Below, piece by piece: positions 6,808-57,700 of a stretch of DNA of 64,000 nt. Location: NCBI GenBank assembly GCA_965649765.1, contig OZ287757.1, positions 49,662,001 to 49,726,000 of the forward strand. Reading direction: 5' to 3'. The position numbers and the translations under genes were made by a program. The notes under the pieces were generated by a model. The model was not told where the DNA came from, did no database searches, and saw only the letters and a program-made list of their open reading frames with translations. The stretch comes from Bispira polyomma (Eukaryota). The number at the start of each line of letters is the position of its first letter. Positions within the stretch are counted from its first letter, which is position 1.

Positions 6808-7749
6808 CCAGGAACTGAAGAACAGTGACCCGTTGGGTAACAGCCCCCACAAAAATTACAAATCCTATAAGAATGTCACATAATTGAAAGCAAAGTTACA
6901 GGGGGCGGGGGGGGGGGGGGGGGGGATTTCACATACTGTGGTGAGTTTTACATTTGCTATTCTATCAACTAGACATCTAATACCAATAATGTTAGTTTGG
7001 TCAAATTTGACATTGGCCCGGTTTATTTGGGGTAATTAATGGGTGGCTTAGCTTACAAGGATTCTTTTTTTCAGATTTTTCATCAGTGCCTCACCTAGTG
7101 TTTTAAGTCAACATGCGCGGTCATTATGCATATTAATTTATTCCACTATGTTAGATCCAGTCACTATATAAAAACTTAAAATATATGTAAATAAAAGATT
7201 AAGGCCACCTTAAATTATTGGTTTAGCTTTTCAGTATGTGTTTAAGTTCACGCCTTTTACTTTAAGATCAGGTTACTGATTCATTGATTTAAGATAACCT
7301 GATACATTAAGGTTTACTTTAGGTAAAGTGGCCTTTTTTGACTTGGAGTAATTATTAGTTATTCTATAGTGTATACAAAATAGTATTTAAATTGTAGGAA
7401 CTAAAAGCACCAGTCATTTAAAAACATACAAAGATACCCTCAAGCTAAAAACCTAGTCTAGACTCACATACAGGGTCCACTTTCAATGGAAAGTCTTTTA
7501 AGTGCAACTACCTGCTTCCTACCTGGCTGAACCTTACGCTACTACTATTATGTACATAGTGCCATATGTAGGCAGCATGTGTAGAAACATGGAAAATTTT
7601 GACACTTTTAATGTATGTGTAAAAATTACATATGTAGTGCTAATAGTAGCATAGATGGTCATTAAAAGAAAATTTGCTGTGAAATTGTGATTAGTAGTGA
7701 CTGTCATTACAGCTGTCGTGTAGAAATGTGTGTCAAGTGGTACTTGGGA

Positions 7750-9920
7750 CAATTCACCAATGTTTCAATACACAAGAAATGGCATCTTAACAATAAGAGA
7801 TATTAAATCAGAAACTAGAATACATCAAGATATAACTAGAACTATAAAAAGCCTGGGGTTAAATGATAAATCAACAAGAAGTGGCAAAAGAGGAGGATTA
7901 AAAATATCACATCAACTGGAAAGACCTGGTGTTAATGAAAGCAATTTGAACATTAAATTTTAACCAGTCCCCAATCACCAGTCAAACTGTTATCCCATGG
8001 GAGTGTTCTTTCACGACTTCTGTGAAGTACTGTACATTATCTGTGCAAGGAATGAGCAGTTGCTTATACTAGGTGATTTTAACTTTCACTTTGAAAAAAT
8101 CAATGATGACAACTGCTGACATCTTGATGAGATATTAGACACATATGACCTAGTTCAACATGCACAAGGTCCCACCCACCAATCTGGTAATATTTTGGAT
8201 CGGATTATTACAAGGAAGGATGGTGGACTAATTTTATCCACTCCTGTAGATGATCTTTACATCTCAGACCATGTGTTACTCATCTATGATATTAAGCTCT
8301 GTAAACCTCTCCCTGAAAAGAAAAGAGTATCTTATAGAAAAATTAACAGCATTGACATTGACCTTTTTAGGTAGGACATACAGGCATCTGAACTTATTAC
8401 TAAACCTACCAAAGATGTGGATCTACTTGGTAATCAATACAATCAGTATTTATTTAACATTTTGGACAAGCATTTACCTCTTATTGACTGCTTTATATAA
8501 GAAAAAAGCCAAAACAACCATTGAACTGTGACCAAATCAAGATTAAAAAGCGGAATAGTGAAAACAGGATCTGGTGAATAGCTTCAGTAGTTTCTTTGTT
8601 GAAAAGATTGATAATATTAGAAAGAATTTTTTGGACTGTAGTCAAACAAAAGGAGGGGTCTGTATGGGAGCATCTGCAGCTCAGTTTACACAGTTCCGGA
8701 CATTGTCTCACAATGAGGTAGCTGAACTCATTACCAGATCTCCATTGAAATCCTGCTCTTTTCATATAAGCTATTGTCACACTAATTCTCAAAAAAGAAT
8801 GGGCTGATCCTGTGTTCAAGAACTTTTGCCCAATTTCAAACCTACCTTTCTCTTAAAGCTTGTAGAAAAGGTTGTATGCCAACATGGCAACAACTTTCAA
8901 AATTTATGGATTCAAATAGCCTAAATGAACCTTATCAATTCGTACAGACCCTGTCACTCCACTGGAACAGCGGTATTGAGGGTGGTAAATGATATTCTGC
9001 TTAAACTGGATAACAAGAAAGTTGTTCTGTTGACACTTCTAAACATCTAACTATAACTCTTTTAACATCTCTCAGCAGCCTTTCACACAGTCGATCATAA
9101 ATTCCTCTTAAACAGAGTAACGTGTATGGCATACAAGGCACAGCTCACAGGTGGTTTCACTTATACCTGGATAAAAGAAGTTAAAGTGTAGTGATAGATG
9201 GTGCTAAATCTAAACCACATACTTTGAAGTATAGTGTACATCAAGGGTCAGTCATGGGACCTGACTTCTACCGCAAATATACCAAGCCAGTGGCTGGGAT
9301 TATAGAACACCATACAATATGTCATTCAATATCACATTTTATGCTATAGACTCACAACTCCATACATCCCTCAGTCCCAGAATAGACAATCAAGCTGATA
9401 TAATATGCAATATTGAAAACTGCATTGATGCTATTAGCAAGTGGATGAGTAACAACAAATTGAAATAAAACCAGCATAAAACTGAATTTATATTACTCGC
9501 CTATTCCATCCACCGAGGTAAAATGTCAATCAAGTCCATAAAAGTAAGCGAGTCTCTCATTTCGAGTAAATATGTCAGGTATCTAGGAGTGTTTATTGAC
9601 CAAGCCCTCAATATGAAAAAGCATGTCAGTAAACTTTGCAGATCCTGTTACTTTCAGCTAAACAACATCCGATACATTAGATCAAATCTCTCAATGGATG
9701 CACCCAAAACAGTAGTTTAAGTCATGTCAAAATTAGACTATTTTAATAGTATTCTTTTGGCATATCAAAAAAAAAACTATTAGATAAACTACAAAGGGTT
9801 CAAAATTGTGCAGCTAGATCTGTGTTAGATTTAAATATGGACCAAAGACGTTCACTTAAATGCTTGAAAACACTGCTTTGGTTACCTGCCAAATACCGGA
9901 TTCAATACAAAATCGTTCTC
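7750..9920 (+). mobile_element. Degenerate L2/CR1-group LINE ORF2 (endonuclease + RT)
   Basis: RSGKRGG; ILGDFNFHFE; GPTHQSGNILD; ISDH; YRPCHSTGTAVLRVVNDIL; QGSVMGP; YLGVFIDQALNMKKHVSKLCRSCYFQL; LQRVQNCAAR; WLPAKYRIQYKI, broken by stops and frameshifts. Confidence 0.9.
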
Positions 9921-12043: not shown

Positions 12044-15000
12044 ATGACTAATCGAGTTAACACTATTATTATTGGAGTTGTGATTTCAGTTGTGTGTGTT
12101 TGTGTACTAATGCTGTTAAGAAATATTGTAATTGTTTACTCAGATCAAGAAAGGCAAGGAACTGACCCTACGATCACAGGTGGTGTATATTTTTATCAGC
12201 TAGCATGTAGTTTGCTGGTACCAATATGACTTCCTTAACTCCACTTCAAAATTTTAACAAGAGGTTTGGGGGTACCCATCTTTTGCTGAACTATTTATAT
12301 TTAATTGCCATAAACTATCTATAAATGCTTACTTTGATCTTATTTGTGTAATATTTGCTTTGAAAGGGACACTTTAAAGCTACATTGTTTTTGCCATTTT
12401 GAAAAATGTTTTGAACAAACGAAATTGGTACTGGCAAAGTGCATTTGCTCCTTTTTATCTAATTATTTGTTATGAATTGTTGTATAAAAGTAAATAGTGA
12501 AAACAGATTTTTCTCTCAATTGTGCCTCAATTCACTATGTTTAAAAGTGAAAATTATCTTCTTTAATACATATAGATTACTATTTACCTATCAGAGCTAT
12601 CAGCATAATTACTATAGATAACAAATTCTAGTCATCATGTATCGACTGATTTTGCAGAATGACAGTAACATATACAAATGCAATCATTTATACTGGCTTA
12701 ACTGCCCAAAAATTTCAGCCAACTACTAATTGTACCAAATAATACATATAGACTTTTTGTGGCCAGTTAATTTCGATTGATTTATTTATAATATATAGTG
12801 ACATGTATTTTACTGTTACAATAATAAAATTTTTAAAAAGAATAAAAATTTAAAAAAAAAACATATAGCAAAAATACCTAACTCTATGGGTTTTGTATGT
12901 CACATTAAAGACTATAGACAACTTGGTTGATGCAATTGGTGGAGTCTTTAATTAGATTAAATGCCTACGGGTAAGATCCATTGCAAGCAAAAAGTATAGC
13001 TATGTGGATAAATACACACAGATAAATACTGAGATATATTAAATGTCCATAAGTAAAATTATATTTGGTCTCAGTAGGTTTCATTCTTTGGATCCATATT
13101 GTTTTAACAGATTGGGAAAGATATTTTATATTGGATTTTTATTTATAGAATAACAATAAACTTTTTATTCAAATAATAAAAGTTCATATTTATATATTCC
13201 TTAATTTTTTGCAATATAAAACTTATTCTCTCCAGAGTAGAGACAAAATTTGGGTAGGCCTTGGTGTGTGTATTTGTTTTGTATGTATAATTTATTGAGC
13301 ATTTTTTTCCAACGGATTTGACCAATTTAGCACAATCCAGTTCACTATTTTACAAAATTTTTGACTCAATGCAAAAATTCATTTTTTGGTGAATTTTTCT
13401 TTCAGATTGTAACTCTACTGAAAATTGTCATCTAGCTAATAATTTTAAAATGATAGACATTATTTTTTTTGTATATATGTATATATATTATATATATTTA
13501 CACACACAGACATTGAGCTACGTCAGAAAGCACGTCGAGAACACCGTCTTGAACAGTGTGAAAGACTGGGTCTTTTGGGAAAACCTGAGGACCTCTCTGA
13601 AGAACAGCTCCACCAAATAGACTTTCTGGTAGATGACTACCATCGGGTGCTGCTAAAACCCGTCCAGAAGACCGGCTGCACATCTTGGAGGACGCTGATG
13701 GTACACAATGCTCAGATCCAGCTTGAAGGCTTCACCCCTTTCGACAAGAGATTGTACAACCTGATAGGGATGGGTTTGCTCTCGGACAGTTCGCCTGAGG
13801 ACGCCATGCAGAAGGTGAAGGACTACTTCAGCATCCTGACGGTCAGGCATCCACTAAGGCGGCTTGAGTCCTACTTCATGAACAACCACCTGCATGATCT
13901 GTCGGATGAGGAGAAGCAGTCTGTGAAGTACAGAGAGGATAGCATAGTCCAGGTCTTCGAAGACTTTGTGGAGCAGGTCAAGCTAGGAAACAACAAGCAC
14001 TGGCACAGCATTTACAGAGAGAGTTACCCATGCAACATTGATTACAGGTATAGATCATACACATGGTATAACCATTGTACGAATTGATAGTCACCCATGC
14101 AACATTGATTACAGGTATAGATCATACACATGGTATAACAATTGTACAAATTGATGGTCACCCGTGCAGCATCAGTTACATGCATTGATCATCCACATGG
14201 TATAACCATTGTACTAATTGATAGTCACCCATGCAGCATTAAGTCCAGGTAGGAAGTGTTACATGGGTATAACTGTTGTAAAAACTAATAGTTACCCGTG
14301 CATTACACACATGGGTGTAAGCATTATACAAATTTTTGCATTTATCCACCTTTTATTTGGTTTTCAACGTGCAAAGTAAACCTGTCCCTGACTGTGCTAA
14401 CATTGCGAACATCAATTGGCAAGAACTGTAGAGAGAGAGAAAAGCTTGGAGGTGATCATTTATCAATGTTCCAAAGGATCCTTAGCCTGCCTCTTGGGAT
14501 AGCACCCAACAACAGTACATGGGACAATAGTTCAAATTTTATCATATCAGACCATTTCAAGTTGAGAGCCTTTCTCTAAAGGAAGACACTCAGACAACAC
14601 TGTAAATTACATCACTCTGTGTATTTTTATTATTAAAATTGATGGCATCACGAAATAGAAATGTAAATGTTATTTTAATGTATTTTGACTTTTGTGGGTG
14701 AATTAAAATAGGGATATTATCCAGTAACATTACATGGAAACAATTGTTCAAAGTTAATCATATCAAACCCTTTTAAATTTTCAGTTTTTCCCAGAAGGAA
14801 GACAGTCAAACAACACTCTATATTACGTCACTCTATATTACGTGTATTTTTTAATAATTAAAATTGGTTGCATCACAAAATAAAAATTAAAATATTTTAA
14901 TGTATTTGGTGAGTTAAAATAGCGATAGGACCCAGCAATAATACACGGAAAAAAATGTTCAAAGTTAATCAAATAACACCTTTTCAAATTTTCAGTTTTT

Positions 15001-21605: not shown

Positions 21606-23985
21606 TTAACATGGCATGTCACCATCTCTGCACGTGGCATACAATTTGCCATCAACAGTAGTGACATTATATCCAAATAGCATCATGTCTAGGTAGTACT
21701 TTTCAGTCAAGTATTTGATGATTATGTCCCTCCTTCTCAGGGAGCTGAAGAGTACCAGTAGTTCTCCATGGTTGTTCTTCATTTCAGTTTTGGTCACGTT
21801 GACCACAAGTTTTCTTGCATTCTTGTGTTCAACCCCTCCGTGTGCTGAGAGCTTGGTTTCCACCACATACTGCATGTCTGCAGATGCTGTTTCTGTTCTG
21901 CCTATGAATCTACAATTAAATGCAATACAACAAAATATACTACAATATCTGTAATAATTTTGATATGTGGCCGTGTAACATATTGTTACAAAATCGTAGT
22001 AGTATGTCTAAAACAAGTTCATTTCTAACAAAGCCTGAAAGGTAACTCCTTTTAACTCACTCCCACAAGTGAAGTTACATTAAAATAACATTGACATTTT
22101 TATCTTGTGATGCCATTAATATTCATTATTAAAAAATACACAGTAATATAGAGTGCTATCTGACTGTTTTCCTTCTGGGAAAAACTGAAAATTTGAAAAG
22201 GTGTTATTTGATTAACTTTGAACATTTTTTTCCGTGTATTATTGCTGGGTCCTATCGCTATTTTAACTCACCAAATACATTAAAATACATTAAAATATTT
22301 TAATTTTGTGATGCAACCAATTTTAATTATTAAAAAATACACGTAATATAGAGTGACGTAATATAGAGTGATGTTTGACTGTCTTCCTTCTGGGAAAAAC
22401 TGAAAATTTAAAAGGGTTTGATATGATTAACTTTGAACAATTGTCTCCATGTAATGTTACTGGATAATATCCCTATTTTAATTCACCCACAAAAGTCAAA
22501 ATACATTAAAATAACATTTACATTTCTATTTCGTGATGTCATCAATTTTAATAATAAAAATACACAGAGTGATGCAATTTACAGTGTTGTCTGAGTGTCT
22601 TCCTTTAGAGAAAGGCTCTCAACTTGAAATGGTCTGATATGATAAAATTTGAACTATTGTCCCATGTACTGTTGTTGGGTGCTATCCCAAGAGGCAGGCT
22701 AAGGATCCTTTGGGACATTGATAAATGGACACCTCCAAGCTTTTCTCTCTCTCTGCAGTTCTTGCCAATTGATGTTCACAATGTTAGCACAGTCAGGGAA
22801 AGGTTTACTTTGCATGTTGAAAACCAAATAAAAGGTGGATAAATGCAAAAATTGTACAATGCTTACAACCATGTGTGTAATGCACGGGTAACTTTTAATT
22901 TTTACAACAGTTATACCCATGTAACACTTCCTACCTGGGCTTAATGCTGCACGGGTGACTATCAATTAGTACAATGGTTATACCATGTGGATGATCAATG
23001 CATGTAACTGATGCTGTAGAGGTGACTATCCATTTGTACAATTATTATACCATGTGTATGATCTATACCTGTAATCAATGTTGCATGGGTGACTATCAAT
23101 TCGTACAATGGTTATACCATGTGTATGATCTATACCTGTAATCAATGTTGCATGGGTAACTCTCTCTGTAAATGCTGTGCCAGTGCTTGTTGTTTCCTAG
23201 CTTGACCTGCTCCACAAAGTCTTCGAAGACCTGGACTATGCTATCCTCTCTGTACTTCACAGACTGCTTCTCCTCATCCGACAGATCATGCAGGTGGTTG
23301 TTCATGAAGTAGGACTCAAGCCGCCTTAGTGGATGCCTGACCGTCAGGATGCTGAAGTAGTCCTTCACCTTCTGCATGGCGTCCTTAGGTGAACTGTCCA
23401 ACAGCAAACCCAGCCCTATCAGGTTGTACAATCTCTTGTCGAAAGGGGTGAAGCCTTCAAGCTGGATCTGAGCATTGTGTACCATCAGCATCCTCCAAGA
23501 TGTGCAGCCAGTCTTCTGGACGGGTTTTAGCAGCACCCGATGGTAGTCATCTACCAGAAAGTCTATTTGGTGGAGCTGTTCTTCAGAGAGGTCCTCAGGT
23601 TTTCCCAAAAGACCCAGTCTTTCACATTGTTCAAGACGGTGTTCTCGACGTGCTTTCTGACGTAGCTCAATGTCTGTGTGTGTAAATATATATATACATA
23701 TATACAGAACAAAAATTAATGTCAATCATTTTAAAATTATTAGCTAGATGACAATTTTCAGTAGAGTTACAATCTGAAAGAAAAATTCACCAAAAAATGA
23801 ATTTTCACAATGGGTCAAAAATTTTGTAAAATAGTGGAATGAATTGTGTTAAATTGGTCAAATCTGCTGAAAAAAAATCCTTAATAAATTTTCATACAAA
23901 TCAAAACAAAAACACACACGAAAGGCATACTCACGTTTTGTCTACTCTGGAGAGAATACAAGTTTAACATTGCAAAAAAATTAAG

Positions 23986-28870: not shown

Positions 28871-29599
28871 CTTAAGTACCACTTAACACACACATTTTTA
28901 CACGACAACTGTAATGACAGTCACTACTAATCACAATTTCACAGTAAATTTTCTTTTAATGACCATCTATGCTACTACTAGCACTACATATGTAATTTTT
29001 ACACTAAAAACGTTGTTTGTATATTTTTAAATGACTGGTGCTTTTAGTTCCTACAATTTAAATACTATGCGGGGTAGCGCCGTAGGGGATAGCAAGTTCA
29101 GTGCTACTAGTATTTTCTACCCTGGGTGCATGCCCTATGAACCCCTTCCTAATTGGTCACTTGTGTACTAATTAACCTCTGTTTTCCCGCTTTTTAGCTA
29201 GAATCCTCACTTATACTATTGAAGTCATTTAGGCAACAATGCCATCTTTAATATTTTACATTATTACTTTTATGTGTTTTTATTTTTACTTCACTGATTT
29301 TACTATTTGTGTTATGGAAACAAGAAATGCAACAAATGATTCACTAAGTTGTGCTACACACTAAGGAGGAACTGATCTGCAGTGTTTTTGCTGGATTCCT
29401 GTGTTCTACTCTACTTTGAGTCTTGCGATTATATGCTCGTTTGAGCGGTGGTAAAGGAACGTGGTCAAATCAATTATATTGCATCAAATTCACGGCTATT
29501 TGCCTGATTACATATAATTTAATTCAGATTATCGCGTTACAGTTCCTTTAGTATAGTTGCAGGTATCAAAGATACGAGTTCTTATATTATTCAGAGGCT

Positions 29600-30526
29600 A
29601 TGGCCCCCAGGAAACAATACTACTGTCACAAGTGTGAAACTAGTCATATTAAACCCATTGATGAAAACTGTAAATTATGTACCAGTGTGGGAACTTCCAA
29701 GCAGAACTCTGTGGCTAGCGATGGTGTAACTGCTGCCGACGTTAACCTACAAATTTTGACTGAACTCAAAGCATTAAGTGGGCGTATGACCCAAGTTGAG
29801 CAGCAAGTTTATCGCAGTTCACATGGAACCCAGGAGCAAACCACTTCTGAGCTACTGGTCCCGACGCTACAGACACTACGTTCATCCGACTCCCTACAGA
29901 CTGCAGTGGATTCACGTCTTAAGGAATTGGTGGCCATCAATGAATCAGGTACGTCAAAATCTCAAAGAGGGGGTCCCGACACTCTGTGGGTGAAGAATAA
30001 GGTGGCTTGGCCTCAGAACGTTATACTAGGGGGACAAAACAAAACACGAGTTACTTATGACCCGTTGTCAATGGCCCAGTGGGTCTCTGGTTTTGCCAGT
30101 ATAGCTAGAGATGAAAGTAGTTTAGACATTAAGAATCAAATGTTGGAGTATCTCACTGACCTCATGGAGGACGCTCATGACTTTTCCTGGACCTCGGCTA
30201 AGGCTAGCCATGCCGTTGTACTGTGTAAAATGGAAGAGGGTAAGGTAACCTGGGGAGATGCCCACAAGTTGGACAGGATTAGACGGGCTCATGCCCAAAG
30301 GGTTGTCATCCAGACTGCAAATAGTAATCATCAAACCAACACCAGGAAAAGTCATGAGAAGTCCATCCCATGTAGATACTTCCAGAAGGGTACTTGCCCC
30401 CAAAAAGGGGATCACGAATTCAAAGGTGTGTCATATAGTCATGTGTGTAACCAATGCTTTCAAAATGGGAGGTCTTACCCCCACCCTGCAAAAGACTGTA
30501 AAAAATATCCGTTAAAAAACGAGTAA
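29600..30526 (+). CDS. Gag-like protein of YR element 1 (308 aa)
   Basis: N-terminal CHKC...H...C knuckle, coiled-coil-like segment, WPQ..TYDPLSMAQWVSGF..W..AKASHAVVL..ME core, C-terminal CRYFQKGTC..H..HVCNQC..HP..C zinc fingers. Confidence 0.88.
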   Translation: MAPRKQYYCHKCETSHIKPIDENCKLCTSVGTSKQNSVASDGVTAADVNLQILTELKALSGRMTQVEQQVYRSSHGTQEQTTSELLVPTLQTLRSSDSLQTAVDSRLKELVAINESGTSKSQRGGPDTLWVKNKVAWPQNVILGGQNKTRVTYDPLSMAQWVSGFASIARDESSLDIKNQMLEYLTDLMEDAHDFSWTSAKASHAVVLCKMEEGKVTWGDAHKLDRIRRAHAQRVVIQTANSNHQTNTRKSHEKSIPCRYFQKGTCPQKGDHEFKGVSYSHVCNQCFQNGRSYPHPAKDCKKYPLKNE

Positions 30527-30548
30527 GGCACTGCAGTAATGCAGTGCC
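30514..30548 (+). promoter_or_regulatory. -1 programmed ribosomal frameshift signal (gag to pol)
   Basis: In-phase A AAA AAC (30514-30520), 6-nt spacer, perfect hairpin GGCACTGCA-GTAA-TGCAGTGCC; the -1 frame is ORF 30544-31164. Confidence 0.85.
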
Positions 30549-32993
30549 AGCCTATGTTTCTTCCACACTAGAGGTGGTCAGAAAAAAACTTGCACAAAAA
30601 GTTGTAAATAATTCTAAAGGTTTTTCCACTAGAACTGTGTATAATAGTCTTAAATGTAATACTGGCAGTACACATTGGAGGGCAGATTGGGCCAAATTTG
30701 TAAATAGATCTTATGCTGAGGTGGTTAAAAGAAAGGCTCCCTCCAGGTCTGCTGCCAAAAAGGTTTCTGTACAAAGTGCAAATGTGAATCAGAGGTGTCA
30801 AAGTCACCATGTTAAATGTTCACCATGTTTAAATAACAACAAAATTTCAGAAGTGTCCACAAAACATGAACTGGGGCACAGAGTGAGGGTTAAAACTTTC
30901 ACAAAAGGTGCTTCCCCTTTTACAAGTGCACAGAGGAATAATGTAATGTCAAAAATGGGTAAACCCCCTCCAACAAAAGGTGGTCAATTTGGCCAAAAGC
31001 TGGAAATCGCAAAATTAGACATTCAGGGCAAATGGCCCATTTCCACTCACAATAGGTTTTCCCCTTTGAGTGACAATGACCATTATATGGACACTAGTGA
31101 CAACTCTTTCACACATTTAGCAGATACTTGTAACCAAGGTCAAGGTCTTAAAACACTCTCTTGAGGTACTGGGGGAATAAAATCAGACAAATATGACCTA
31201 GAACTACAAACTAAATCGAAAAACAGGGAACTTATAAAACGTGCTTGCAACCAGCCTCAGTTCCAGCAATGGGATACTCAAACTACAGATAAGTATGGGT
31301 TTATTCCGCTAAATGACCTCCGAGTTCCCCAAACGGATAAACGAGTAAAGTCGGATAAGTCTCTGTTAGAGTTACACACTCAGATTAAGCAGGACAACTA
31401 CCCAAATTATATGGGGGCACAAGTTCAATTGAAATCTGAGTTGAACCCAGATGTATGGGAAAAATACTTGACTGACTACTGGGATAAACAACTCCCCTTT
31501 TTGATAAGATATGGGTTTCCCCTCGATTTTAATCCTGACAGCAAGTTATCTCATACAGAACAGAATCATTCATCTGCAACACAATTTCCAGATGATGTGC
31601 ATGCTTATTTAAAAGAAGAGACTGAGTTAGGTGCCATGTTGGGCCCTTTCCATAAGGCCCCATACAAAACCTCCATATTTCTCCCTTTATGACTAGGGAA
31701 AAGCCAGGTGCCGCACACAGGCGCGTTATCATAGATTTAAGCTTTCCTCATGGCAACTCTGTGAATTCGGCTGTAGTCAAGGATAAGTATCTCGGTACTG
31801 CATTTGCATTAACCCTTCCCACAATTGACACAATCACAAACAAAATATGTCGTATGGGACGTGGAACGCTCTTATATAAAATTGACGTAAGTCGGGCATT
31901 TCGTCACGTAAAAATGGATCCAGCTGATTACAATCTATTAGGCTTAAAATTAGACAAATACTACGTCGACTCCTGCCTCCCCTTTGGTTTTCGGCACGGG
32001 AGCGCAATTTTTCAGCGATTAAGTGACGCCGTCAGGTACATTATGAAACGTCACGGACATGACGTCACCAACTATATCGACGACGTAATCGGCTATGGTG
32101 ACGTCATAGAAAGTAAACATTCATTTGATATATTGCTCAACTTACTCCAGGAACTAGGCTTTGCGATTAGTCACAAAAAACTTGTTCACCCCAGCACATC
32201 AGTAACGTGTCTGGGGGTGTTAGTTAATACAAATGACTTGACAATCTCATTGCCAGATGAAAAGCTACTAGAAATAAACACACTTGTGCAAGACTGGCAA
32301 TTAAGAAACTGCTGCAGTAAGAGGGAGTTGCAGTCACTGCTAGGTAAATTGTTATATGTATCCAAGTGTGTTCGAGTTTCACATGCTTTCTTAAACCGAA
32401 TGCTTGACGTCCTAAGATCTGTAGGCCCGGATCAAAAAGTAAAACTTACACCTGAGTTTCATCAGGATGTAAATTGCTTTAAAAAATTTTTACCAACATT
32501 TAATGGAAAAGCCTTCTTTGAACACAAACCCACTACCGATTGTATTCAGTTGGATGTGTGCCTCCAAGGTCTGGGAGGCCGTTGTAATGATGAAGTATAC
32601 CAATTCCAAATTCCTCTAGGTTATCTAGATTTCACGATAGTTCATCTGGAGATGTTAAACATCTTAGTTGCCATTAGGCTATGGAAGTCAGCGTGGGCAG
32701 GTAAGAGGCTAATATTGCAATGCGACAATGCTGCCGTGGTCACTATCCTCAATTCAGGCAAAACTAAAGACCTCACTTTGGCAGCTATTGCCAGAAACAT
32801 CTTCATGGCCGTAGCCTCCCATGATATCAGTCTCAAAACCATTCACATTTTAGGTAGACTTAATACAGTGGCTGATCTCCTCTCTAGGTGGCAGATCACG
32901 GCCAGCAATAATGACAAGTTACTAGAACTGGTATCGAATCCCAAATGGGTAAAAGTAAAAGACACAATGTTAGAAATAGATTGGTCTATCTAA
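30520..32993 (+). pseudogene. pol (long spacer + RT + RNase H) of YR element 1, with one nonsense codon (31162-31164) and one frameshift (~31660)
   Basis: YGFPL, RRVIIDLS, KIDVSRAFR, LPFGFRHGSAIFQ, NYIDD, LQSLLGKL, HLEMLNI, QCDNAAV, NTVADLLSR; ORFs 30544 and 31411 are in the same frame across a single TGA. Confidence 0.9.
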
Positions 32994-33991
32994 TTGCAGA
33001 TGTACCTTCCAAGCTAAGAAAGATTGCTACACAAGCCTCATACAGAGCCCATCAGGCCTTTAGACCAGCCACTGAAAGGGCCTATACAAATATGTTTAGG
33101 ATATTCTTGGCCTATTGTAGTTTTGCTCAGGTCAGGCCTCAAAATATCTCCCCCCTCATTATATTGGCTTTCTTAGAAGTATTAGTGGTTAATCATGTCT
33201 CTTCCTCCTCCATTGCAAACTACCTCTCGGCGGTTAAAGCTAAATTGGCCCTCTATGGCCTTGACGTCTCTGCATTTGCAGATCCTAGAATTAAGTATTA
33301 CCAAAAAGCCCTTACACTCAATAGCCCCTTCAGGGCTAAAATTAAAGCTATTATTGACATTCCCCTGTTACTCCAAATTACTCAAATTTGTGACAGCATG
33401 TACATGGGGCAGGTCTTCAAGGCTCTGTACCTCATTGCTTTCTTTTCTTTTCTTAGAATATCGAACTTACTTCCACATGCTGTCTCTCAATTCTCTCCAC
33501 TAGTCCAACTGGCCTGGGGGGACGTACTTTTTGCCTCCCCTGGCCTCCACCTCATAATAAAGTGGTCTAAAACAATGCAGTCAAATAATGTAGCAAAAGT
33601 TATTAAAATACCGAGCCTAAGTGGCTCTAGTCTCTGTCCGGTGGCTGCCACAAGGGCCTTGCTAGCTATTACTCCTGGACACAAAAATTCTCCTCTCTTT
33701 CAGTTTAAAAAATACCATAAATGGTCCCCAATGATTGACACCCAAGCTAGACAAAATCTCACTCAAATTTTAAGGCGTCTTGGCCTTCAGCAATCAAACA
33801 TTTCTTTCCACACCTTCAGGCGTTCAGGTGCCACCTTGGCCTTCAACAATAATGTCCCAATTCAAGATATCCAGAGCCATGGCACTTGGACGTCTGATTG
33901 TGTGTGGAAATATATTGTACAGGATCACAATGCATCTGACCAAGTCGCCCTCACCTTCAAGGCCCTCCTTTCCCCTTCTACTACTTCCTAG
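32945..33991 (+). CDS. Tyrosine recombinase of YR element 1 (probably expressed from a splice acceptor at 32999/33000)
   Basis: FFSFLRISNL (R), KWSKT (K), LCPV, HTFRRSGAT (HxxR), HGTWTSDCVWKYI (H/W..Y); all catalytic residues present. Confidence 0.9.
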   Translation: MGKSKRHNVRNRLVYLIADVPSKLRKIATQASYRAHQAFRPATERAYTNMFRIFLAYCSFAQVRPQNISPLIILAFLEVLVVNHVSSSSIANYLSAVKAKLALYGLDVSAFADPRIKYYQKALTLNSPFRAKIKAIIDIPLLLQITQICDSMYMGQVFKALYLIAFFSFLRISNLLPHAVSQFSPLVQLAWGDVLFASPGLHLIIKWSKTMQSNNVAKVIKIPSLSGSSLCPVAATRALLAITPGHKNSPLFQFKKYHKWSPMIDTQARQNLTQILRRLGLQQSNISFHTFRRSGATLAFNNNVPIQDIQSHGTWTSDCVWKYIVQDHNASDQVALTFKALLSPSTTS

Positions 33992-35719
33992 TTGGGCTTT
34001 GGTGCTTTATTTACATACATTATATACAAATAAAATATAATAATGCTTAAATATAAATATTTTGGGGCCACCTTACCTTATACTAATTTAATCATTTTAC
34101 ATCTTTACTAAATCTCTTTTGGCAACCTCAAATAAAATCTAAGGTTACCATTTTTCTTAAACTTAAACTCATTCTAAGGTTACCCTAACTTCAAGTTAGG
34201 GTTACCCCTAAATTCAACCTTAAAATTTCAATCTTTGGTAACCCTAACTTTCAAGCTAGGGCTACCCCTTAAATTTTAAAATTCCCTTTGGTCACTTTGG
34301 CCTGTTGTCCTCAGGTTAAGATCACCTTAAACTCTTAACTTCTCCTAAACTCTTGGGGCTAAGGTGGCCCCTTACTACACAGTATGTAAATAATTATTAG
34401 TGATAACATAGTAAAATTTAAGCTAATATCCCCAAAGCCTACCTTTCTTGTTATTTTCCTTTGTTACACCACATCTACAAGTTTACTAGGGTAGGGCACT
34501 GTTGTGTATACACTACAGAATAACTACTAATGATTACTCTTTGTCAAAAGGGCCACTTTAACTATACTTAAATGTATCAGGTTATCTTCAAACAATGAAT
34601 CAGTAACCTGATCTTAAAGTGAAAGGCATGAACTTAAACACATGCTAAAACGCTAAACCAATAATTTAAGGGGGCCTTAATCTTTTAGTTTGACATATTT
34701 AAAGTTTTTCATATAGTGACTGGATCTAACATAGTTGAATAAACTAATATGCATAATGACTGCGCATGTTGACTTAAAACACTAGGTGAGGCACTAATGA
34801 GAAATCTGGAAAAAGAATCCTTGTGATCTAAGCCACCCATTGATTACCCCAACTAAACTGGGCCAATGTCAAATTTGACTAAACTAACATTTTTGGTATT
34901 AGATGTCTAGTTAATAGAATAGCAAATGTAAAACTCACCAAAGTATGTCAAATTCGATACTGAGAAAATTTTGCTTCTTGGTGCTTAATTTTAAGGGGTG
35001 ACCCCAGTAGTAAATTCTTTTTGTTGTGGTAAATTTCATATTGTTGATATTATTTGTATTTGTGCGAAAACATTCCTTGAATACTTGGTCATGTTGTTTC
35101 GCTCGTTTGCATATTTCCCATCAACTTTTACTTAATTCTTAATTTTGTTAACAAAATATTTATATTAAAAATTGGCAGCATTGACAAATCTATTAATTTC
35201 AGTTTATGTATGTCAAGGGAAACACTAAAATCCACACAGATGTTTTTTGTTAATATTGTAGCTCTTACAGATGAATCGTTGTAAATGTCCATTTAAAATT
35301 TGAAACTGCATCAAATAAACTCTGAAAAATCAATAAACATTTGAATGCTAAGGAAATGTGTTTGAGATAAGTTGTTAATATCATGGGCATAACGTCAATA
35401 GTTGGAGCTGAACTGAAAATACACATTTGTTATGTTGTATAATGGTGCAAAGAGTTTAAATAACCCCTATGTTTAAATTACACCCCTGACCTAGTACCTT
35501 AATATGGATTCTGTTGTACCCCCTTATGTTTATGGTACCCCTCTATTTTACTGTTAGTATGAGAGGGGGTAGCTTCAAATTAATTCTTAAGTTACCCTCC
35601 ACCTTAAGAGCTACCTTCCATTCATTTTGAATTTAAACATAAATCAGCCAACATCTGATAAAAAAATACTGATCAGTCCGTCCGAAGTTGGGATTAGTGA
35701 CATTGAAGCATAGGTAGGC

Positions 35720-41075: not shown

Positions 41076-44000
41076 TCAGCATGTCATTGTTCCATCTTTG
41101 CATGTTGCGTAATATGTTCCATTTACATTGGCAATATCATATCCAAATAGCTTCATGTCTTCGTGATATTTTTGGCTAAATCGGTTGACATAGAGTGCCT
41201 TGTTGTCCAGTAAGTTGAATAAAGTTAACTGTTCACCAATGTGGTCTTTAGATGCACTCTTTGCCATGTGTTTAGTAGTACCCAAACCCGACAATCTGGT
41301 ATTCAGGATATATTCCATATCAGCATTAGTGGTTTCCATTTTTGCTATATAACTACAGGGAAACAAGCATAATCAATTAATATTATAATATATCATTTGA
41401 TCAAATATCAATAACCATATGTATATGTTGCACCCAATCCGTAAAATTGCCCATTTAGGCGAAAGAGCAAGAAAATTTGCCCCATTCATAAAATGGGCAG
41501 CTTAATAAATGTGGTAAATTTGAATTAAACAAAAATAAAAATGGGCAACCTTTTGTCCAAAAAAATATTTGTTATTCATAGATTGTAAAGATATATGGTT
41601 TGGGGTCGTTTAAAAAATATCTATATTTGAATTTTTCACATATAAGTCCTGAGTCAGTTTTAACATAAAATAAAATGTGAGATAGCCTGGAACTCCCTTT
41701 GTACTATTACACCATTTAAAAAAATAGGACTCTCACTGCAGTCAACGATTTGATTGAACATGGACAAGTTGATACAATAGACATGCAAACCATGAACATT
41801 TGTTGTTGCCAGGGTTACACAGGTGTCATTGCCATAAAACTGTCTAGCTGAAAGGTGTTATTGTCTTAAAACAGACAAAAAATCACAGTGACAAAACATG
41901 TGACAATGTCCATAAATAGATGAATTTGACCAAAAATACTACAACAAATATAATATTGCATTAAAAGACTATTCACTTGTAATATAAAAAGTCGTATATA
42001 TACAAGGAAATGTTGTCTTTATGAAACAAATGAATGTTGTCTTAGTGTCTTAGAAAGTAGTTGTATTTTGTATGTGAAAGTTATATTGATGTTTAAAAAA
42101 AAATTCTAATCATTGTGTGAAAGATAAAATTTTGTGCATTTGCTTGCCCATTTTGTAAAATGAGCAAAGAATTTGTTGTCTATTTCATGAAATGTGCAAG
42201 TGAGTTGCCAATTTCACGAAAAGGCCAATTTCATAGATTGGGTTGAACATACATGCTTATGAATAGCAAAAATAGGGGCATACCTGTATTTTATAGTACA
42301 CAAGTAACTCTGTGCGTGAAAAGGTGTTGTGTGGATATTCACATCGAAATGCTTAAACAGGTCTTCAAGAAAGTCTTCGAAGGCACTTGCCATACTTGTG
42401 TGTGATTGCATCGCTGCAGACTTCCTTGTTTCCTCTGGTGGTGTACTTAAGTAGTTTGCCATGAAAACAGATTCCAGCCTCCTTAGAGGATGCATCACTG
42501 TAAGAATGGAATAATAGTAGGACACCTTGTACATCGATTCCTTGTGCAAACAGTCCGAGAGAAGGCCTAGACCAATACGGTGATAGAGCTCCTTGTCGAA
42601 CGGGTCAGTGAACGTATCCACTTTATGTGGTGCATTGTTGATCATTAATGACCTCCAGGACTTACAATTGGTTCCATCAACAGTGTTCAGTAATACCCTG
42701 TGAGAGTCATCCACCAGAAAGTCTATGGCACCAAGCACGCTGTCTGTAAGGTCCTTCAACTGTCCACGAAGATTCAACTCCTTACATTTCGACATAAATA
42801 ATTTCTGACGTTCATACTGACGATCAATAGTTTCTAAAAAGCATTGAAAAACATCAAAGAAGTTAAAACAAAAGGGCAGGTTTAACCATGGTAATTTATT
42901 ATCATAGTCAGTTGAGGTAGTGCAGGTAAGGTGCTGATAAAAAGGTAGCCAGTCAAAACCCAAAATCTACACCAATGTGATAGTAATTTGATTCTTATTG
43001 TTAACAAATGTTGTTTCATTTTTTACGAGGGATGGTTCTTGAGGCACATTGTGAAAATTATGCAAAAATTGTAATTAAAATTATAGAACTATTTAATGCT
43101 GAGCAGGTATTCACTGAATCCCTAGACAACTACTTCCAACATTCTCTTTAGCAATTACAATCTTTTAATGTCAAAGGGATAAAACAATTAACTTTGCCAT
43201 GAAATTGACCAAGGGTGAGTTTGTGCTAGAGCTTTGGTATGGTCAGATCCTACTAGATTAGAATAGAAGAAAGAATTTAATCATGTTTCTTTGATATAAA
43301 TTTGTAATGTTCCCCAGGCCAATTCCAGTGTTTATCAGGAGAGGGCGAACGCCACTTCGTGCAACTGGGGTGGCTTTTTACAGAGGTAACAAATAGAAGA
43401 GGAGCTAATTTATCCAATAAGATTTCAGTTATAAATGTAAGGAGAGCTGCTGAGCATTGTCTACTTTAAAGGCTAAAGTTGTTGTTTTTTATTGTCCCTA
43501 GGTTATTGATTGTTGACTATTATCAGAATTTGAAATCTCTCAAAGGATGTGTAATTAAATTGTTTGTAAATGCATAAATTACATGCAATGTATCACACAA
43601 TTTAGTTTGAAGTATACCAATAGAAAATAATGTAATAGTGGCATTATGGGTTGGCGATCTGATTGTCTGTTGACACAATAAAATAAGGTTAAATATATGA
43701 AAGCCCTACAACCTGATATTAACCAAGAACATTAAAGACTTTTTGAGACCAAAGACCTACTACATCATAAGTGGCAGTCACACAGGAATTTGGTTATCTG
43801 ACCAGTCACAGAATCATCGTAAGAACAGTCGCCAAATATGGACTACATATGTAAGGATTGGTCTTATGAAGGTCTTGTCGAGGTTTTGCAAGTGTGCAAG
43901 ATCGCCAAAGATAGGTTGGACAAAGATTGCAGACCACCGTACGTCCAAGTGCAATGTTTTAAAGATTTTTGAAGATCATGGAAGACTGGTTAAACTTTGT

Positions 44001-49271: not shown

Positions 49272-49277
49272 CTGGAA

Positions 49278-52200: not shown

Positions 52201-52428
52201 GCTTTTCACACATACACTGCCCTTGGAGTTAATATTTCCAACGGGTTCTAATATGTCTTTTACAATTTTAACTAATGGTTGCTTATAACATTCGACTTTG
52301 GTATTTTTGTATAGTAACTTATTTTTATCTTTAACTTTTGCTAACTTATCTGTTTTTAGAACACTGTTCCTATTCTCAAACATACTGTCCCTAACTTGAG
52401 TTCCTAGTCCTAGTAGTTGTCCGTCGTC
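49278..52428 (-). pseudogene. pol (spacer + RT + RNase H) of YR element 2, two frameshifts
   Basis: FGFPL, RRVILNLS, KLDVSCAFRNL, MAFGW, CYINDY (YIDD mutated), FQSILGKL, FIDSCLTGLG, HLEMVNI, HCDNMAV; shifts near 50320 and 49780. Confidence 0.88.
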
Positions 52429-53679
52429 CTAGCGGCTAGACCCCTGAACCGGATCTGTCTGCTTGGCTGAATTTGCTTTGTGGCATTTAAATTCCGGATG
52501 GTATATGTCCTTGTTTAGAACCGTGGCGCAATGCCAACATACATGCTTAAAATTACTATGGTCAGATTTATGTGAGCATTTGCCTGAGTTGTAAAGTTTG
52601 CATATCTTCATCGCCCCGTTGTTACTGGGGGTAGAGCTAGTGGTTTTTGAATTCATCATAGCGAGTTGGGAGGCACTGAGGCGGTTTAGAGCCCACTGGG
52701 TAGAGTCGCCCCAAGCCAGCCGACCTTCCTCGACCTCTGTCATGCTGGTGGCCCATGCTGTCTGCACCACCTCCCAGGGCAACGAGGACGCGTCCTTAAG
52801 AGCCAGGATAACTTGTTGGATCACATCTTTAGAAGTGGCCGGATCTGTAACTTGTAGTGCGATGGACAACTGTCCTGATGTCCACTGGGGAAGTGATAAG
52901 TCATCGAAAAGTGGCTTTTTACGTAGGGAACCGCCCGTCCAGCCCTCATTCGCCCACCTGACATTGCGGTTGGCAGTGGGAATATCAGTGGCGTTAAATC
53001 TTCCGGACTTTTGACGTAAAGTATTCTTACCTTGGCTAAAAGCCATCTGTGCCTGGATGTTGTATTCAGCGAGTCTTGCGTTGACCATTGACTGCACATC
53101 AGGAAGTGACTTGAGCACGTCAGCTCTGGGAACGATCCTGTCTGTCGAATAAACCGCAGCAGTGTGAGACCCGGGGACATGTGTTGGTAGCTGATCCGTG
53201 GCTGCTGCCGGCAACGTAAGTTGTGGAGTAGGACGCTCTGCAATCGTGTTGACAGGTAACCTGGCATCATGGCCTGGTAGGGCTATCGTAGGTACTGCCG
53301 GGACAGTCATAGACGAAGGCATCTGCGACGCAAGATGCTGCTGGGGTACATTCGCTATCGGCGGATGAGTACTCAAATCTCTCGCCTCTACACATGCTAG
53401 TCTCTGGCCTAGTGCAGCGTTTAAGTCCTCCAAATGCTTCAAGATAACTAGCATCTGGGAGCTCTTGTCGTCGGGAACCGAAGGGTTGATAAGTTGGAAT
53501 TGGGTGGTTGTAGGTGATGTGTGCTGTGAAGCTTGGGCGAACGGGCCACTGAGATCAGTTACCAGACTGTCATAGACATGGCTATGCTTACCCGTCCGCT
53601 TTGAGGAGCTTTTCTTTGACGCTAACTTCTTGGCTGTCCCATTTGTAGCCGGAGTTTTGGTTGTGTGAGTTCTCCCCAT
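52429..53679 (-). CDS. Gag-like protein of YR element 2 (416 aa)
   Basis: QGKN..KSGRFN..WANEG..FDDLSLPQWTSG..WEVV..VEEGRLAW core and CKLYNSGKC..H..HVCWHC..HPEFKC fingers; intact ORF. Confidence 0.85.
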   Translation of the reverse strand: MGRTHTTKTPATNGTAKKLASKKSSSKRTGKHSHVYDSLVTDLSGPFAQASQHTSPTTTQFQLINPSVPDDKSSQMLVILKHLEDLNAALGQRLACVEARDLSTHPPIANVPQQHLASQMPSSMTVPAVPTIALPGHDARLPVNTIAERPTPQLTLPAAATDQLPTHVPGSHTAAVYSTDRIVPRADVLKSLPDVQSMVNARLAEYNIQAQMAFSQGKNTLRQKSGRFNATDIPTANRNVRWANEGWTGGSLRKKPLFDDLSLPQWTSGQLSIALQVTDPATSKDVIQQVILALKDASSLPWEVVQTAWATSMTEVEEGRLAWGDSTQWALNRLSASQLAMMNSKTTSSTPSNNGAMKICKLYNSGKCSHKSDHSNFKHVCWHCATVLNKDIYHPEFKCHKANSAKQTDPVQGSSR

Positions 53680-54749: not shown

Positions 54750-57700
54750 TTTCTAGTACTAGTAAAGCCAAATAATTTTCCAAGACAAAAGTAGGGTCTG
54801 TGAGGTGTATAAGGTGTGTTTTTAGGCAACGACGACAACTTTAAAAGGCTTTTGTAGCAATTCAGAAGAAAAGAGTGTTTTACAATTGTTTCACAGCCCC
54901 CTCAGATCTAGTACCAGGCTAATGGGGCCAATTAGGCAACCTGAGGTCACAAAGAAAACTTTAAAAGGCTTTGGTGCCCAACCAGCGCCATCATTACTTT
55001 TGTAGCAATTCAGAAAAAAGAGTGTTTTACAATTGAGCTTTTACTACCCTAACTATTGTTTTGACCTCATTTTATGTTATTTGATCATGTCTAAGAAAGA
55101 AAATCAGTATAATGCCTGTCTAGGAAAGCATGCTCGTCCTGTGGGAAAGCAGGTCATTTCAACTTGGTGTACAGCGTTGCCAATGAAGTACCCATGGTTG
55201 GCCATGCTACTTTAGATGACATGTCTGATTGCTAGTAATGTAACTGAACCAGTAGTTGAGGCTGTTGTGCCCTCCCTAGAATTCCTAAGATCTCGGAGAG
55301 GTGGCTCCAATCAACTATTTGACAAACCTGATGGATGATGCCCATGATTTTTCGTGGGGCGCCGCCAAAGCATCCCATGTCATTTTGTTAACAAACATGG
55401 AACTTGACCGCCTTAAATGGACATACGTAGATAAAATTGACCGAGTGCGTAGGGCGCATGCTCAGTGTCATATTCCCCCTAGCTTAAGTGGGTCTAGCAC
55501 TTCAAAAACCAGTAGTGTTAGTAAAAACCAAACTTAGACGAAAACACAAGGGGTTACATGTAAATTTTACAAAGAAGGAACATGTAAGTTTAACGATAGT
55601 CACCGTACTTCTGGTCAGCTGTTTAAACATTGTTGTGAAAATTGTAACTGTCTGCATGTGACAAAATTGTGTCCCAAGAAAGGGGTCACAAAAAACTAAG
55701 TGGCCACTGCACAGTGGATATAAAAGGCAGACTGATAAAGTGTTTTCTAGGCTTGTATATAATTGTAATATAATGAGTTTACAGATTTAAAATTGTGTGA
55801 TAAAATGTATTTTAACCATTATGTATGTAGTAACAAAAATGTGAAAAGATCCAAAAAGGACATGGTTGAGAAGGGGGACAGCCATATTCCAAGTGGATTC
55901 ACAATAAAACTTGTTGTAGGCAAAATTGAGAAATGGTAAAGTGTCAGCCTGCCCTGTCCAACTTAAAACGAAAATATTCACCAAGGTGAAAGTTTCTAAT
56001 AAAGACAAAAGAGTCCCAAATAAGTGTGTAAACAAGCCTTTACATTCTGTCGACCAGCCTGTCAGAAAGGGAGACGTCAACCAAAACTAAACAATCACCA
56101 CCGGTTGGGGACATGTCAGAAATGACTCAGTGAACGTGTTGACCAAGAATGGGCCCTATATAAACCCCTCCGAGGTGGGGGCAGTCCTCCATTGTACTCC
56201 ACTACAAAGGCAATGAACTCAGGTAATGGTAACAATAGCTATGAGTATGGGGCCTTCCAATTAACTCCACAGAATAGATATGCCTTGTTAGACAAACCTT
56301 GTGTAAGAAGAAGTAATGACACAGGACACTGTGTGTGGGGGTTGGGACTTTAAAAAGGTGTTACCCTGTAAACAAAGACTGACCAACACTGAACCAATTG
56401 TGATGACAAGTATGATTTGGACATGAACAAATATTCCGATAAGAGACAGTGCCTCAATGTTGCTAAAGAATGTGACACATATAAATTGTGGGATGTGCAA
56501 AATAGTGGCAAATTCGGGTTTATCCCTCTTAGTCATTAAGAGTGACCCTCTACTTGATAACTCTGGTGACAAGTTACTAATAGACGCCTTCATTCTCCAC
56601 ATGTTTCTAATTATATAATTATAGAGGCCTCCAGGTACCTGTCATTTCACAACTTAATGCCTCTGTGTGGGCTAAATACTTGCAGGATTGCTGGGACTGG
56701 GAACTTTACTGGAAACCCTAATGATAAAGTTTAGGTTTCCCAATTACTGTGATAAGGAACAGTTTAAGTCTGAACTTAACAATCACTCCTCTGCTACTCA
56801 GTGTCCTCAACATGTGTCTCATTACTTAGAGGAAGAATGTCAACTGGGGTCATGTATGGGCCTTTTGCTGTACCCCCTATTGAAAATCTACATACCTCTT
56901 CATTTATGACTAGGGACAAGTCGAGCACCATTAACCATTGTGTTATATTAGACCTCATCTTTTGTTGGGACTGTACTGGGATGGTTACTCAGTCAGCGGA
57001 TTGCTACCCTTTGGCTACAAGGACGGCTTGGCGATTTTCCAGCGAATCTCAGATGGCATAAGATATATTATGCAAGGTGAAGGTCACCATATCTCGAACT
57101 ACATTGACGATCTCCTAGGTTGCGCAACTCCCACAAATAGATACTAGCCCTACAACCGATTACAGGCCCTCTTAACCGAACTAAGCTTGACTCTGAGCCA
57201 GAAAAAATTGGTCCCTCCTGCGACTCAGGTTACTTGTCCAGGCATTATTATAGATACGGTTAATTTTACTACCTCGATACTAGAGGTAAAACTTCAAAGT
57301 AAAAACAAACATGTACAAAAGTACTGGACAAACATTTCAGTTTTTGCTGGATTTCCTACTTTATGTCTCTGATTGTGTTAAATATTTAAGATTTTTCTTG
57401 AACAGAATGCTGCACATCCTGAGAGAAGTAATTAAAAAAGCAAAACCTTAAAAATTACCTCTGACTTTCATAATGATCTAAATTGGTTTAGGACTTTTCC
57501 AGTAAATTCAAGGGAGTTTCAGTATTTTTACCACAAACCCACAACTGCCATGATGGAGTTGGATGCTTGACTGACTGGTATGGGGGGGGAGTTATGGAAA
57601 AGTGTAGACACTGCCAATACTTGCTGAAATGCAGCATCGAAACATTGCTTCCCTAGAGATGTTAAACATTGTGGTTGCATTAAAGATATGGGGTGAACAG

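Follow-up and report, generated by a model that had tools for sequence, protein, structure and literature searches.

A conserved candidate -1 frameshift signal at the gag-pol junction of Ngaro-type tyrosine-recombinase retrotransposons in Bispira polyomma

The 64,000-nucleotide stretch of the Bispira polyomma genome analysed here (the window) contains a retrotransposon, element 1, in which pol overlaps the end of gag in the -1 frame and has no start codon nearby. This raises the question of how its pol is translated. The reading preferred here, to which a probability of roughly 85% is assigned, is that a conserved cassette at the junction is a -1 frameshift signal giving Gag-Pol in abundant Ngaro-type elements. 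Element 1 comprises the following parts:

29064..29263, + strand: split direct repeat A1, the 5' end of the element, a 200-bp block of which 7 of the 12 full-length sisters have a second copy behind B1
29600..30526, + strand: gag-like ORF1 with Cys/His motifs at both ends and a 48-nt in-frame deletion relative to sister copies
30514..32993, + strand: pol in the -1 frame, with N-terminal linker, RT (RVT_1, E 1.3e-11) and RNase H; broken at 31162-31164 and near 31656-31692
33000..33991, + strand: tyrosine recombinase (YR) coding region (Phage_integrase, E 9e-6, plus SAM-like domain hits)
33998..34501, + strand: split direct repeat B; the window copy is without the A2...B2 tail of complete copies

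The gag, RT/RNase H and recombinase ORFs follow one another in this order on one strand. Twelve full-length sister copies were aligned to window positions 29064-34501, one of them (L121) without part of the 5' region. The repeat order A1-ORFs-B1-A2-(about 900 bp)-B2 is seen in seven. The window copy stops after B; the A2...B2 tail, absent from this copy and from five sisters, was possibly lost via B1/B2 recombination. The gag, pol and YR frames are all unbroken in six sisters, and in 11 of the 12 pol is a single frame of 827-847 codons, which stops shortly past RNase H. In Pfam searches of three unbroken pol frames, with E values up to 1 admitted, no methyltransferase was hit. The gag of the window copy matched no Pfam family, and in the ESM Atlas it fell only into unnamed clusters, with recognition below threshold.

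Ngaro elements are defined structurally by the order gag, RT/RH, YR, by split direct repeats and by the absence of a methyltransferase (PMC9210276, PMC8547959, PMC3783388 and PMC4157794, in the sections consulted). Element 1 shares with published members this ORF order, the A1...B1 A2...B2 arrangement and the lack of a methyltransferase. In its complete copies A2 and B2 stand about 900 bp apart, with no long ORF between them (L128:7764-8662; also L122, L125 and L129-L132), which is a difference from the published members. The DIRS-like superfamily, with inverted terminal repeats, an internal complementary region and a methyltransferase, was considered and rejected, the repeats here being direct and no methyltransferase being hit. 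By its structure, element 1 is a Ngaro-type tyrosine-recombinase retrotransposon; structure alone can mislead in superfamily assignment (PMC4157794, in the part consulted). In the genome assembly (1.04 Gb in 75 contigs), each gag-like query returned about 7,500-8,500 first-look candidates, which indicates that YR retrotransposons are very abundant in this genome. Host reading frames with a Sulfotransfer_2 domain flank element 1 on either side (13449-14087, 23096-23725 and 42214-42966).

The junction of element 1 and its counterpart in a decayed relative in the window, element 3, contain the following features:

30514..30520, + strand: slippery heptamer A AAA AAC with fixed wobble bases, found unaltered in 96 of 108 aligned junctions
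30521..30526, + strand: 6-nt spacer holding the gag stop; the heptamer-to-stem distance is the same in 716 of 724 genome matches
30527..30548, + strand: 9-bp stem with a 4-nt loop, predicted to stimulate frameshifting; its inner 7 bp hardly vary, unlike the loop
55690..55717, + strand: decayed element 3, with the same heptamer, TAA, and a stem shortened by a 6-nt deletion

The gag frame begins with the ATG at 29600 and ends ...TTA AAA AAC GAG TAA, its stop occupying 30524-30526. The heptamer at 30514-30520 consequently has the X XXY YYZ phase relative to gag, in agreement with the initial annotation, which had also correctly described a 6-nt spacer (GAGTAA, 30521-30526, with the gag stop inside it) and a perfect 9-bp stem closed by GTAA (GGCACTGCA at 30527-35, loop GTAA, TGCAGTGCC at 30540-48). 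The predicted folding energy of the 30527-30548 hairpin is -16.3 kcal/mol, and the segment 30521-30600 has a z-score of -3.17 against 200 shuffles. Hairpins of about -16 kcal/mol without a pseudoknot may be modest frameshift stimulators. A search of 30300-30800 against Rfam at E up to 1 matched no family. In element 3, the arrangement reported earlier was seen again: the heptamer (55690-55696), TAA, then CCACTG CA CAGTGG, the 2-nt 'loop' being what remains after a deletion of 6 nt, as comparison with related copies shows.

Opening at 30502, the -1 frame has its first ATG at 30946, 144 codons past the heptamer, which bears out the remark that pol has no nearby ATG. The related claim that the -1 frame runs into pol holds as regards the frame in which pol lies, but not as an uninterrupted path, RT not being reached unbroken in the window copy: a premature TGA (31162-31164) and a frame break near 31656-31692 both precede it. 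Full Gag-Pol is impossible from this copy, which is a damaged member of its family.

An A/T-rich genome offers many slippery sequences, and the cassette might be a chance or protein-driven pattern at the A-rich end of gag. The window alone holds 886 canonical heptamers on its two strands. Only the one at 30514-30520 is followed, 5-9 nt downstream, by a perfect 9-bp stem with at least 5 G/C, and 100 shuffled windows yielded no heptamer with such a 9-bp stem at 5-9 nt. Genome-wide, the heptamer followed after 8 nt by the 7-bp stem core occurs exactly at 716 places, against 0 for a reversed-pattern control. Relaxing the gap to 3-14 nt gave 724 matches, only eight more, and the exact heptamer stands 8 nt before the stem core at 716 of the 865 places where that core occurs. 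With synonymous positions also fixed far above background, as set out below, the chance explanation has next to no probability left and is counted as already refuted.

Conservation was examined at two depths. A DNA search for close copies gave 322 candidates, of which 40 were scored (95-100% identity) and 30 of those examined; the heptamer was exact in 28 and the stem perfect in 26, with the loops GTAA (20), GTGA (9) and ATAA (1). Such copies are young and carry little information on selection, and diverged families were therefore sampled with the element-3 junction and gag protein queries, including 60 hand-picked hits in which open frames were favoured. The resulting 115 loci, 55 of them from DNA queries spanning the junction and so biased toward conserved junctions, fell into 29 clusters at 85% gag-core identity, with between-cluster gag identities of 41-81% (median 51%). 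The heptamer was exact in 96 of the 108 loci with an alignable junction. Twenty-five representatives were kept, after removal of two clusters without the junction and of L097 and L101, in which the junction is replaced by other sequence.

Within these representatives the nucleotides of the heptamer are more constant than the protein would demand. The base preceding AAA is A in 25 of 25, while the codon to which it belongs encodes eight different residues; the lysine codon is AAA in 24 of 25 and never AAG, and the asparagine codon AAC in 23 of 25 and never AAT. Elsewhere in gag the commonest wobble base reaches a median frequency of 0.50 at 31 four-fold sites (maximum 0.80), 0.60 at 12 lysine sites (maximum 0.91) and about 0.67-0.68 at five asparagine sites. 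The phase of the heptamer is right in 94 of 106 copies, and in 104 of 106 the gag stop, which may be TAA, TAG or TGA, comes directly after AAA AAC or one codon later. Among public contigs, many pieces of other families start to match the window exactly at 30514, indicating that the conserved island begins at the heptamer. A metagenome scan for relatives gave one locus (L181), which was rejected for its 23% identity and bacterial-looking neighbours; a scan of viral contigs gave none.

The stem was evaluated in a gap-free alignment of 25 sequences, in which L045 was exchanged for L047 and L148 for L143, in each case a family mate. Of its 225 stem cells, 94.2% are paired. Both sides change at three of the nine pairs (G-C/C-G/U-A; A-U/U-A), and the covariation score exceeds those of all 500 shuffles and all slid controls, figures that relatedness inflates. 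Taken by itself, the number of covarying pairs falls short of significance, since 35 of 500 shuffles match it. The commonest stem swap is probably one inherited event, and independent events appear to be few overall. RNAalifold, unaided, recovers eight of the pairs, and the outermost pair is broken in nine of the 25 representatives. The seven inner pairs barely vary and are therefore hardly informative on pairing; their constancy could also reflect a peptide or sequence constraint. The refuting condition named in the initial annotation, a lack of conservation of heptamer and stem within the family, was thus checked and did not apply, given the fixed wobble bases, the fixed spacing, the compensatory stem changes and, as shown below, the openness of the -1 frame. 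As judged from these alignments, the cassette is under selection. The GNRA tetraloop that the same annotation had listed as a feature does not hold up: the loop takes 19 different forms and is GNRA in only 8 of 27 family representatives, so its occurrence here is incidental. A pseudoknot was likewise ruled out, the 4-nt loop being free to vary.

If the cassette directs frameshifting, pol should be found in one fixed frame relation to gag and have no start of its own. Of the three frames past the stem, the -1 frame stays open longest in 97 of 106 copies, with a median of 211 codons against 16 and 3 for the other two, and the relation of the two frames is fixed at -1; the earlier suggestion of a Gag-Pol fusion made by frameshifting is supported by this pattern. 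Depending on the family, the -1 frame has its first methionine at a codon between 4 and 145, or none at all. Peptide motifs common to the families (RxVYNS, WRADW) stand 18-82 codons past the shift and, in several families including that of the window, upstream of the first pol ATG. The pol N-terminus has a pN/pS of only 0.66 (eight families; synonymous sites saturated), which counts as weak support. A short conserved peptide, RxVYNS...WRADW...SYA.VVK, lies at about 30620-30740 of the window; it belongs to no Pfam family, recurs in many families of the element and was present in 41 of 120 listed homologues.

Two further sets of sequences bear on the translation of this region. Four copies (L147-L150) have one extra base just upstream of the heptamer, and there gag continues straight into the same pol peptide, giving in L147 a fused frame of 1040 codons; since four copies share it, the extra-base variant has itself multiplied. 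At the protein level, RT homologues from other assemblies (120 listed of 865) include seven with an HC..AV start and ten with KK[RL]xx[HGS]C, two overlapping sets. These motifs correspond to what the cassette encodes when read in the -1 frame, and the homologues carrying them interleave with the families of this genome in the RT tree. The indication of conservation beyond this genome is thus indirect, coming from protein N-termini.

The same region can be read as one in which pol initiates alone, at a downstream AUG or a near-cognate codon such as the GTG of the 3' arm, either by re-initiation or from a transcript of its own, the cassette being an RNA packaging or protein-binding site. The gag stop adjoins the stem, the 7-bp core is sequence-invariant as a binding site would be, and some copies do have an ATG 42 codons in (four of the five copies read in one subfamily). 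The position of the ATG is not conserved, however, and independent initiation leaves both the fixed wobble bases and the phase of the heptamer unexplained; it is regarded as very improbable.

Splicing is a rival of a different kind. Two predicted splice sites are present in element 1:

29946..29954, + strand: predicted phase-1 splice donor CAG/GTACGT in gag, with the exon end at 29948
32991..32999, + strand: pol stop, followed by the predicted phase-1 acceptor TTGCAG/ for YR, junction 32999/33000

Among 120 copies that have the anchor motif, 116 retain AG/GT at the donor, and G/GTA is the majority form in 33 of 34 families. In each of the three lineages, a YAG acceptor of matching phase comes after the pol stop. 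In a survey of 24 families, with 10 loci left out and the AG of one family mis-picked by the script, the acceptor lay 6-82 nt past the pol stop, and YR occupied the -1, 0 or +1 frame relative to pol. The counterparts in element 2, a second element of the window, are a donor at 53031 and an acceptor at 49272. The phase-1 donor in gag, together with the phase-matched YAG past the pol stop, points to splicing as the likely source of the recombinase, as a Gag(N)-YR fusion, in each of these lineages.

Since the phase-1 gag donor is also in frame with the CAG of the 3' arm of the stem, splicing becomes the main rival for pol itself: joining 29948/29949 to CAG/TG in that arm (its AG ending at 30544) would give an in-frame Gag(N)-Pol, with the hairpin only regulating the acceptor. 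The conservation of the donor, the near-invariance of this CAG in a phase that matches it, and the apparent use of such an acceptor by YR in the same elements are all consistent with that route. The candidate acceptor, however, is purine-rich and base-paired within the stem; the sequence before it has a pyrimidine fraction of 0.39 and a mean of 2.3 upstream AGs, compared with 0.59 and 0.58 for the YR acceptor. The gag-pol frame is moreover fixed at -1, while the pol-YR frame varies between families as an intron allows, and the heptamer, its phase and the 6-nt spacer would be left unexplained. In the genome, gag continues past the gag exon in 30 of 30 copies examined (40 scored, from 115 candidates), and no processed, spliced copy occurs among them. 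Contigs of unrecorded kind from three public runs cover the whole element, and none of the 15 joints listed, out of 29, is a predicted splice, an outcome that carries no weight in either direction. Spliced pol is rated unlikely, though less so than independent initiation.

Frameshifting, as the preferred reading, would proceed as follows. The hairpin would stall the ribosome with tRNA-Lys on AAA and tRNA-Asn on AAC, and both tRNAs would re-pair at -1. Reading would then continue through K-K-R/L-x-x-H-C-x-x-A-V into the linker, RT and RNase H. A fraction of ribosomes would slip and produce Gag-Pol, the remainder terminating two codons later and releasing Gag, so that slippage would fix the Gag:Pol ratio.

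A simple stem-loop downstream of A_AAA_AAC is also the arrangement of the HTLV gag-pro and astrovirus ORF1a/1b signals. The cassette resembles these in having the same heptamer and a hairpin instead of a pseudoknot; its sequence is unrelated to theirs, and their hosts are viral. With canonical signals of retroviruses and LTR retrotransposons it shares the in-phase A_AAA_AAC, the 6-nt spacer, a 3' structure and pol in the -1 frame. It departs from them in its stimulator, which is a simple hairpin of 8-9 bp whose loop is unconstrained and which gives no hint of a pseudoknot, in the gag stop lying within the spacer, and in its host, a YR element of the DIRS order with neither protease nor DDE integrase. 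According to the portion of PMC5009743 consulted, A_AAA_AAC ranks with the heptamers on which mammalian ribosomes shift most, the spacer of -1 signals is usually 5-9 nt, and 28 of 51 animal LTR retroelements have pol in the -1 frame, in many cases with heptamers of this kind; that text makes no mention of DIRS, Ngaro or tyrosine recombinase.

For DIRS-order elements, no gag-pol frameshift or readthrough signal was found in the literature searched, namely in the accessible parts of PMC8547959, PMC6681497, PMC3266345, PMC3783388, PMC13003380, PMC9210276, PMC7192593, PMC9341512, PMC4157794 and PMC5009743; the 2004 paper of Goodwin and Poulter, that of 2005 by Poulter and Goodwin, and Poulter and Butler (2015) lay outside this search and may already propose one. 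Poulter and Butler (2015), as quoted in the part of PMC13003380 consulted, proposed that the YR ORF is expressed by frameshifting; in the present elements it is the gag-pol junction that has the frameshift signal, and YR has splice signals.

The window also contains a member of a lineage that is distant in the RT tree and has a different junction:

52408..52431, - strand: element 2, with the gag TAG (52431-52429) in frame with pol and a conserved 3' context; readthrough candidate

In this lineage the gag stop is TAG followed by G in all 44 loci (14 clusters; L056-L080 and L162-L180, L161, a duplicate of L068, being left out and the L080 stop assigned manually to the homologous site). The zero frame extends without a stop for as many as 1253 codons, neither of the others for more than 31. 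A short conserved motif lies 9-21 nt past the stop, and single-sequence folds of the lineage gave no conserved downstream pseudoknot or stem. Readthrough at a gag UAG-G is known from retroviruses of the gammaretrovirus type. The element-2 lineage resembles these in its TAG + G in frame with pol (44/44) and differs in having the short motif at 9-21 nt in place of a conserved pseudoknot or stem. Stop-codon readthrough is the likeliest reading of this junction and, from its sequence pattern, a fairly probable one. A phase-1 YAG ending 21 nt after the first base of the stop would also permit pol to be made by splicing, though this is the less likely route.

Overall, the mechanism proposed for element 1 is canonical, even textbook, and its Ngaro-type host belongs to a poorly studied class of elements. 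The expression of overlapping, start-less ORFs in DIRS-order retrotransposons appears to rest on suggestion, and the cassette provides a defined 35-nt signal, exact at 716 genomic places and accompanied by natural variants, that is directly testable. It places frameshifting at gag-pol and not at pol-YR, where a review had proposed it. To judge from the lineage with the in-frame TAG-G, these elements may move between frameshifting and readthrough in the way that retroviruses do. On a broader reading, for which the chances appear evenly balanced, Ngaro-type YR elements would draw on the whole retroviral toolkit from one transcript: -1 frameshifting would supply Gag-Pol in one lineage, UAG readthrough would do so in a second lineage of this genome, and splicing would yield the recombinase as a Gag(N)-YR fusion. 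The invariant 7-bp core may then be read by a protein or hide an in-phase acceptor, coupling frameshifting to splice choice.
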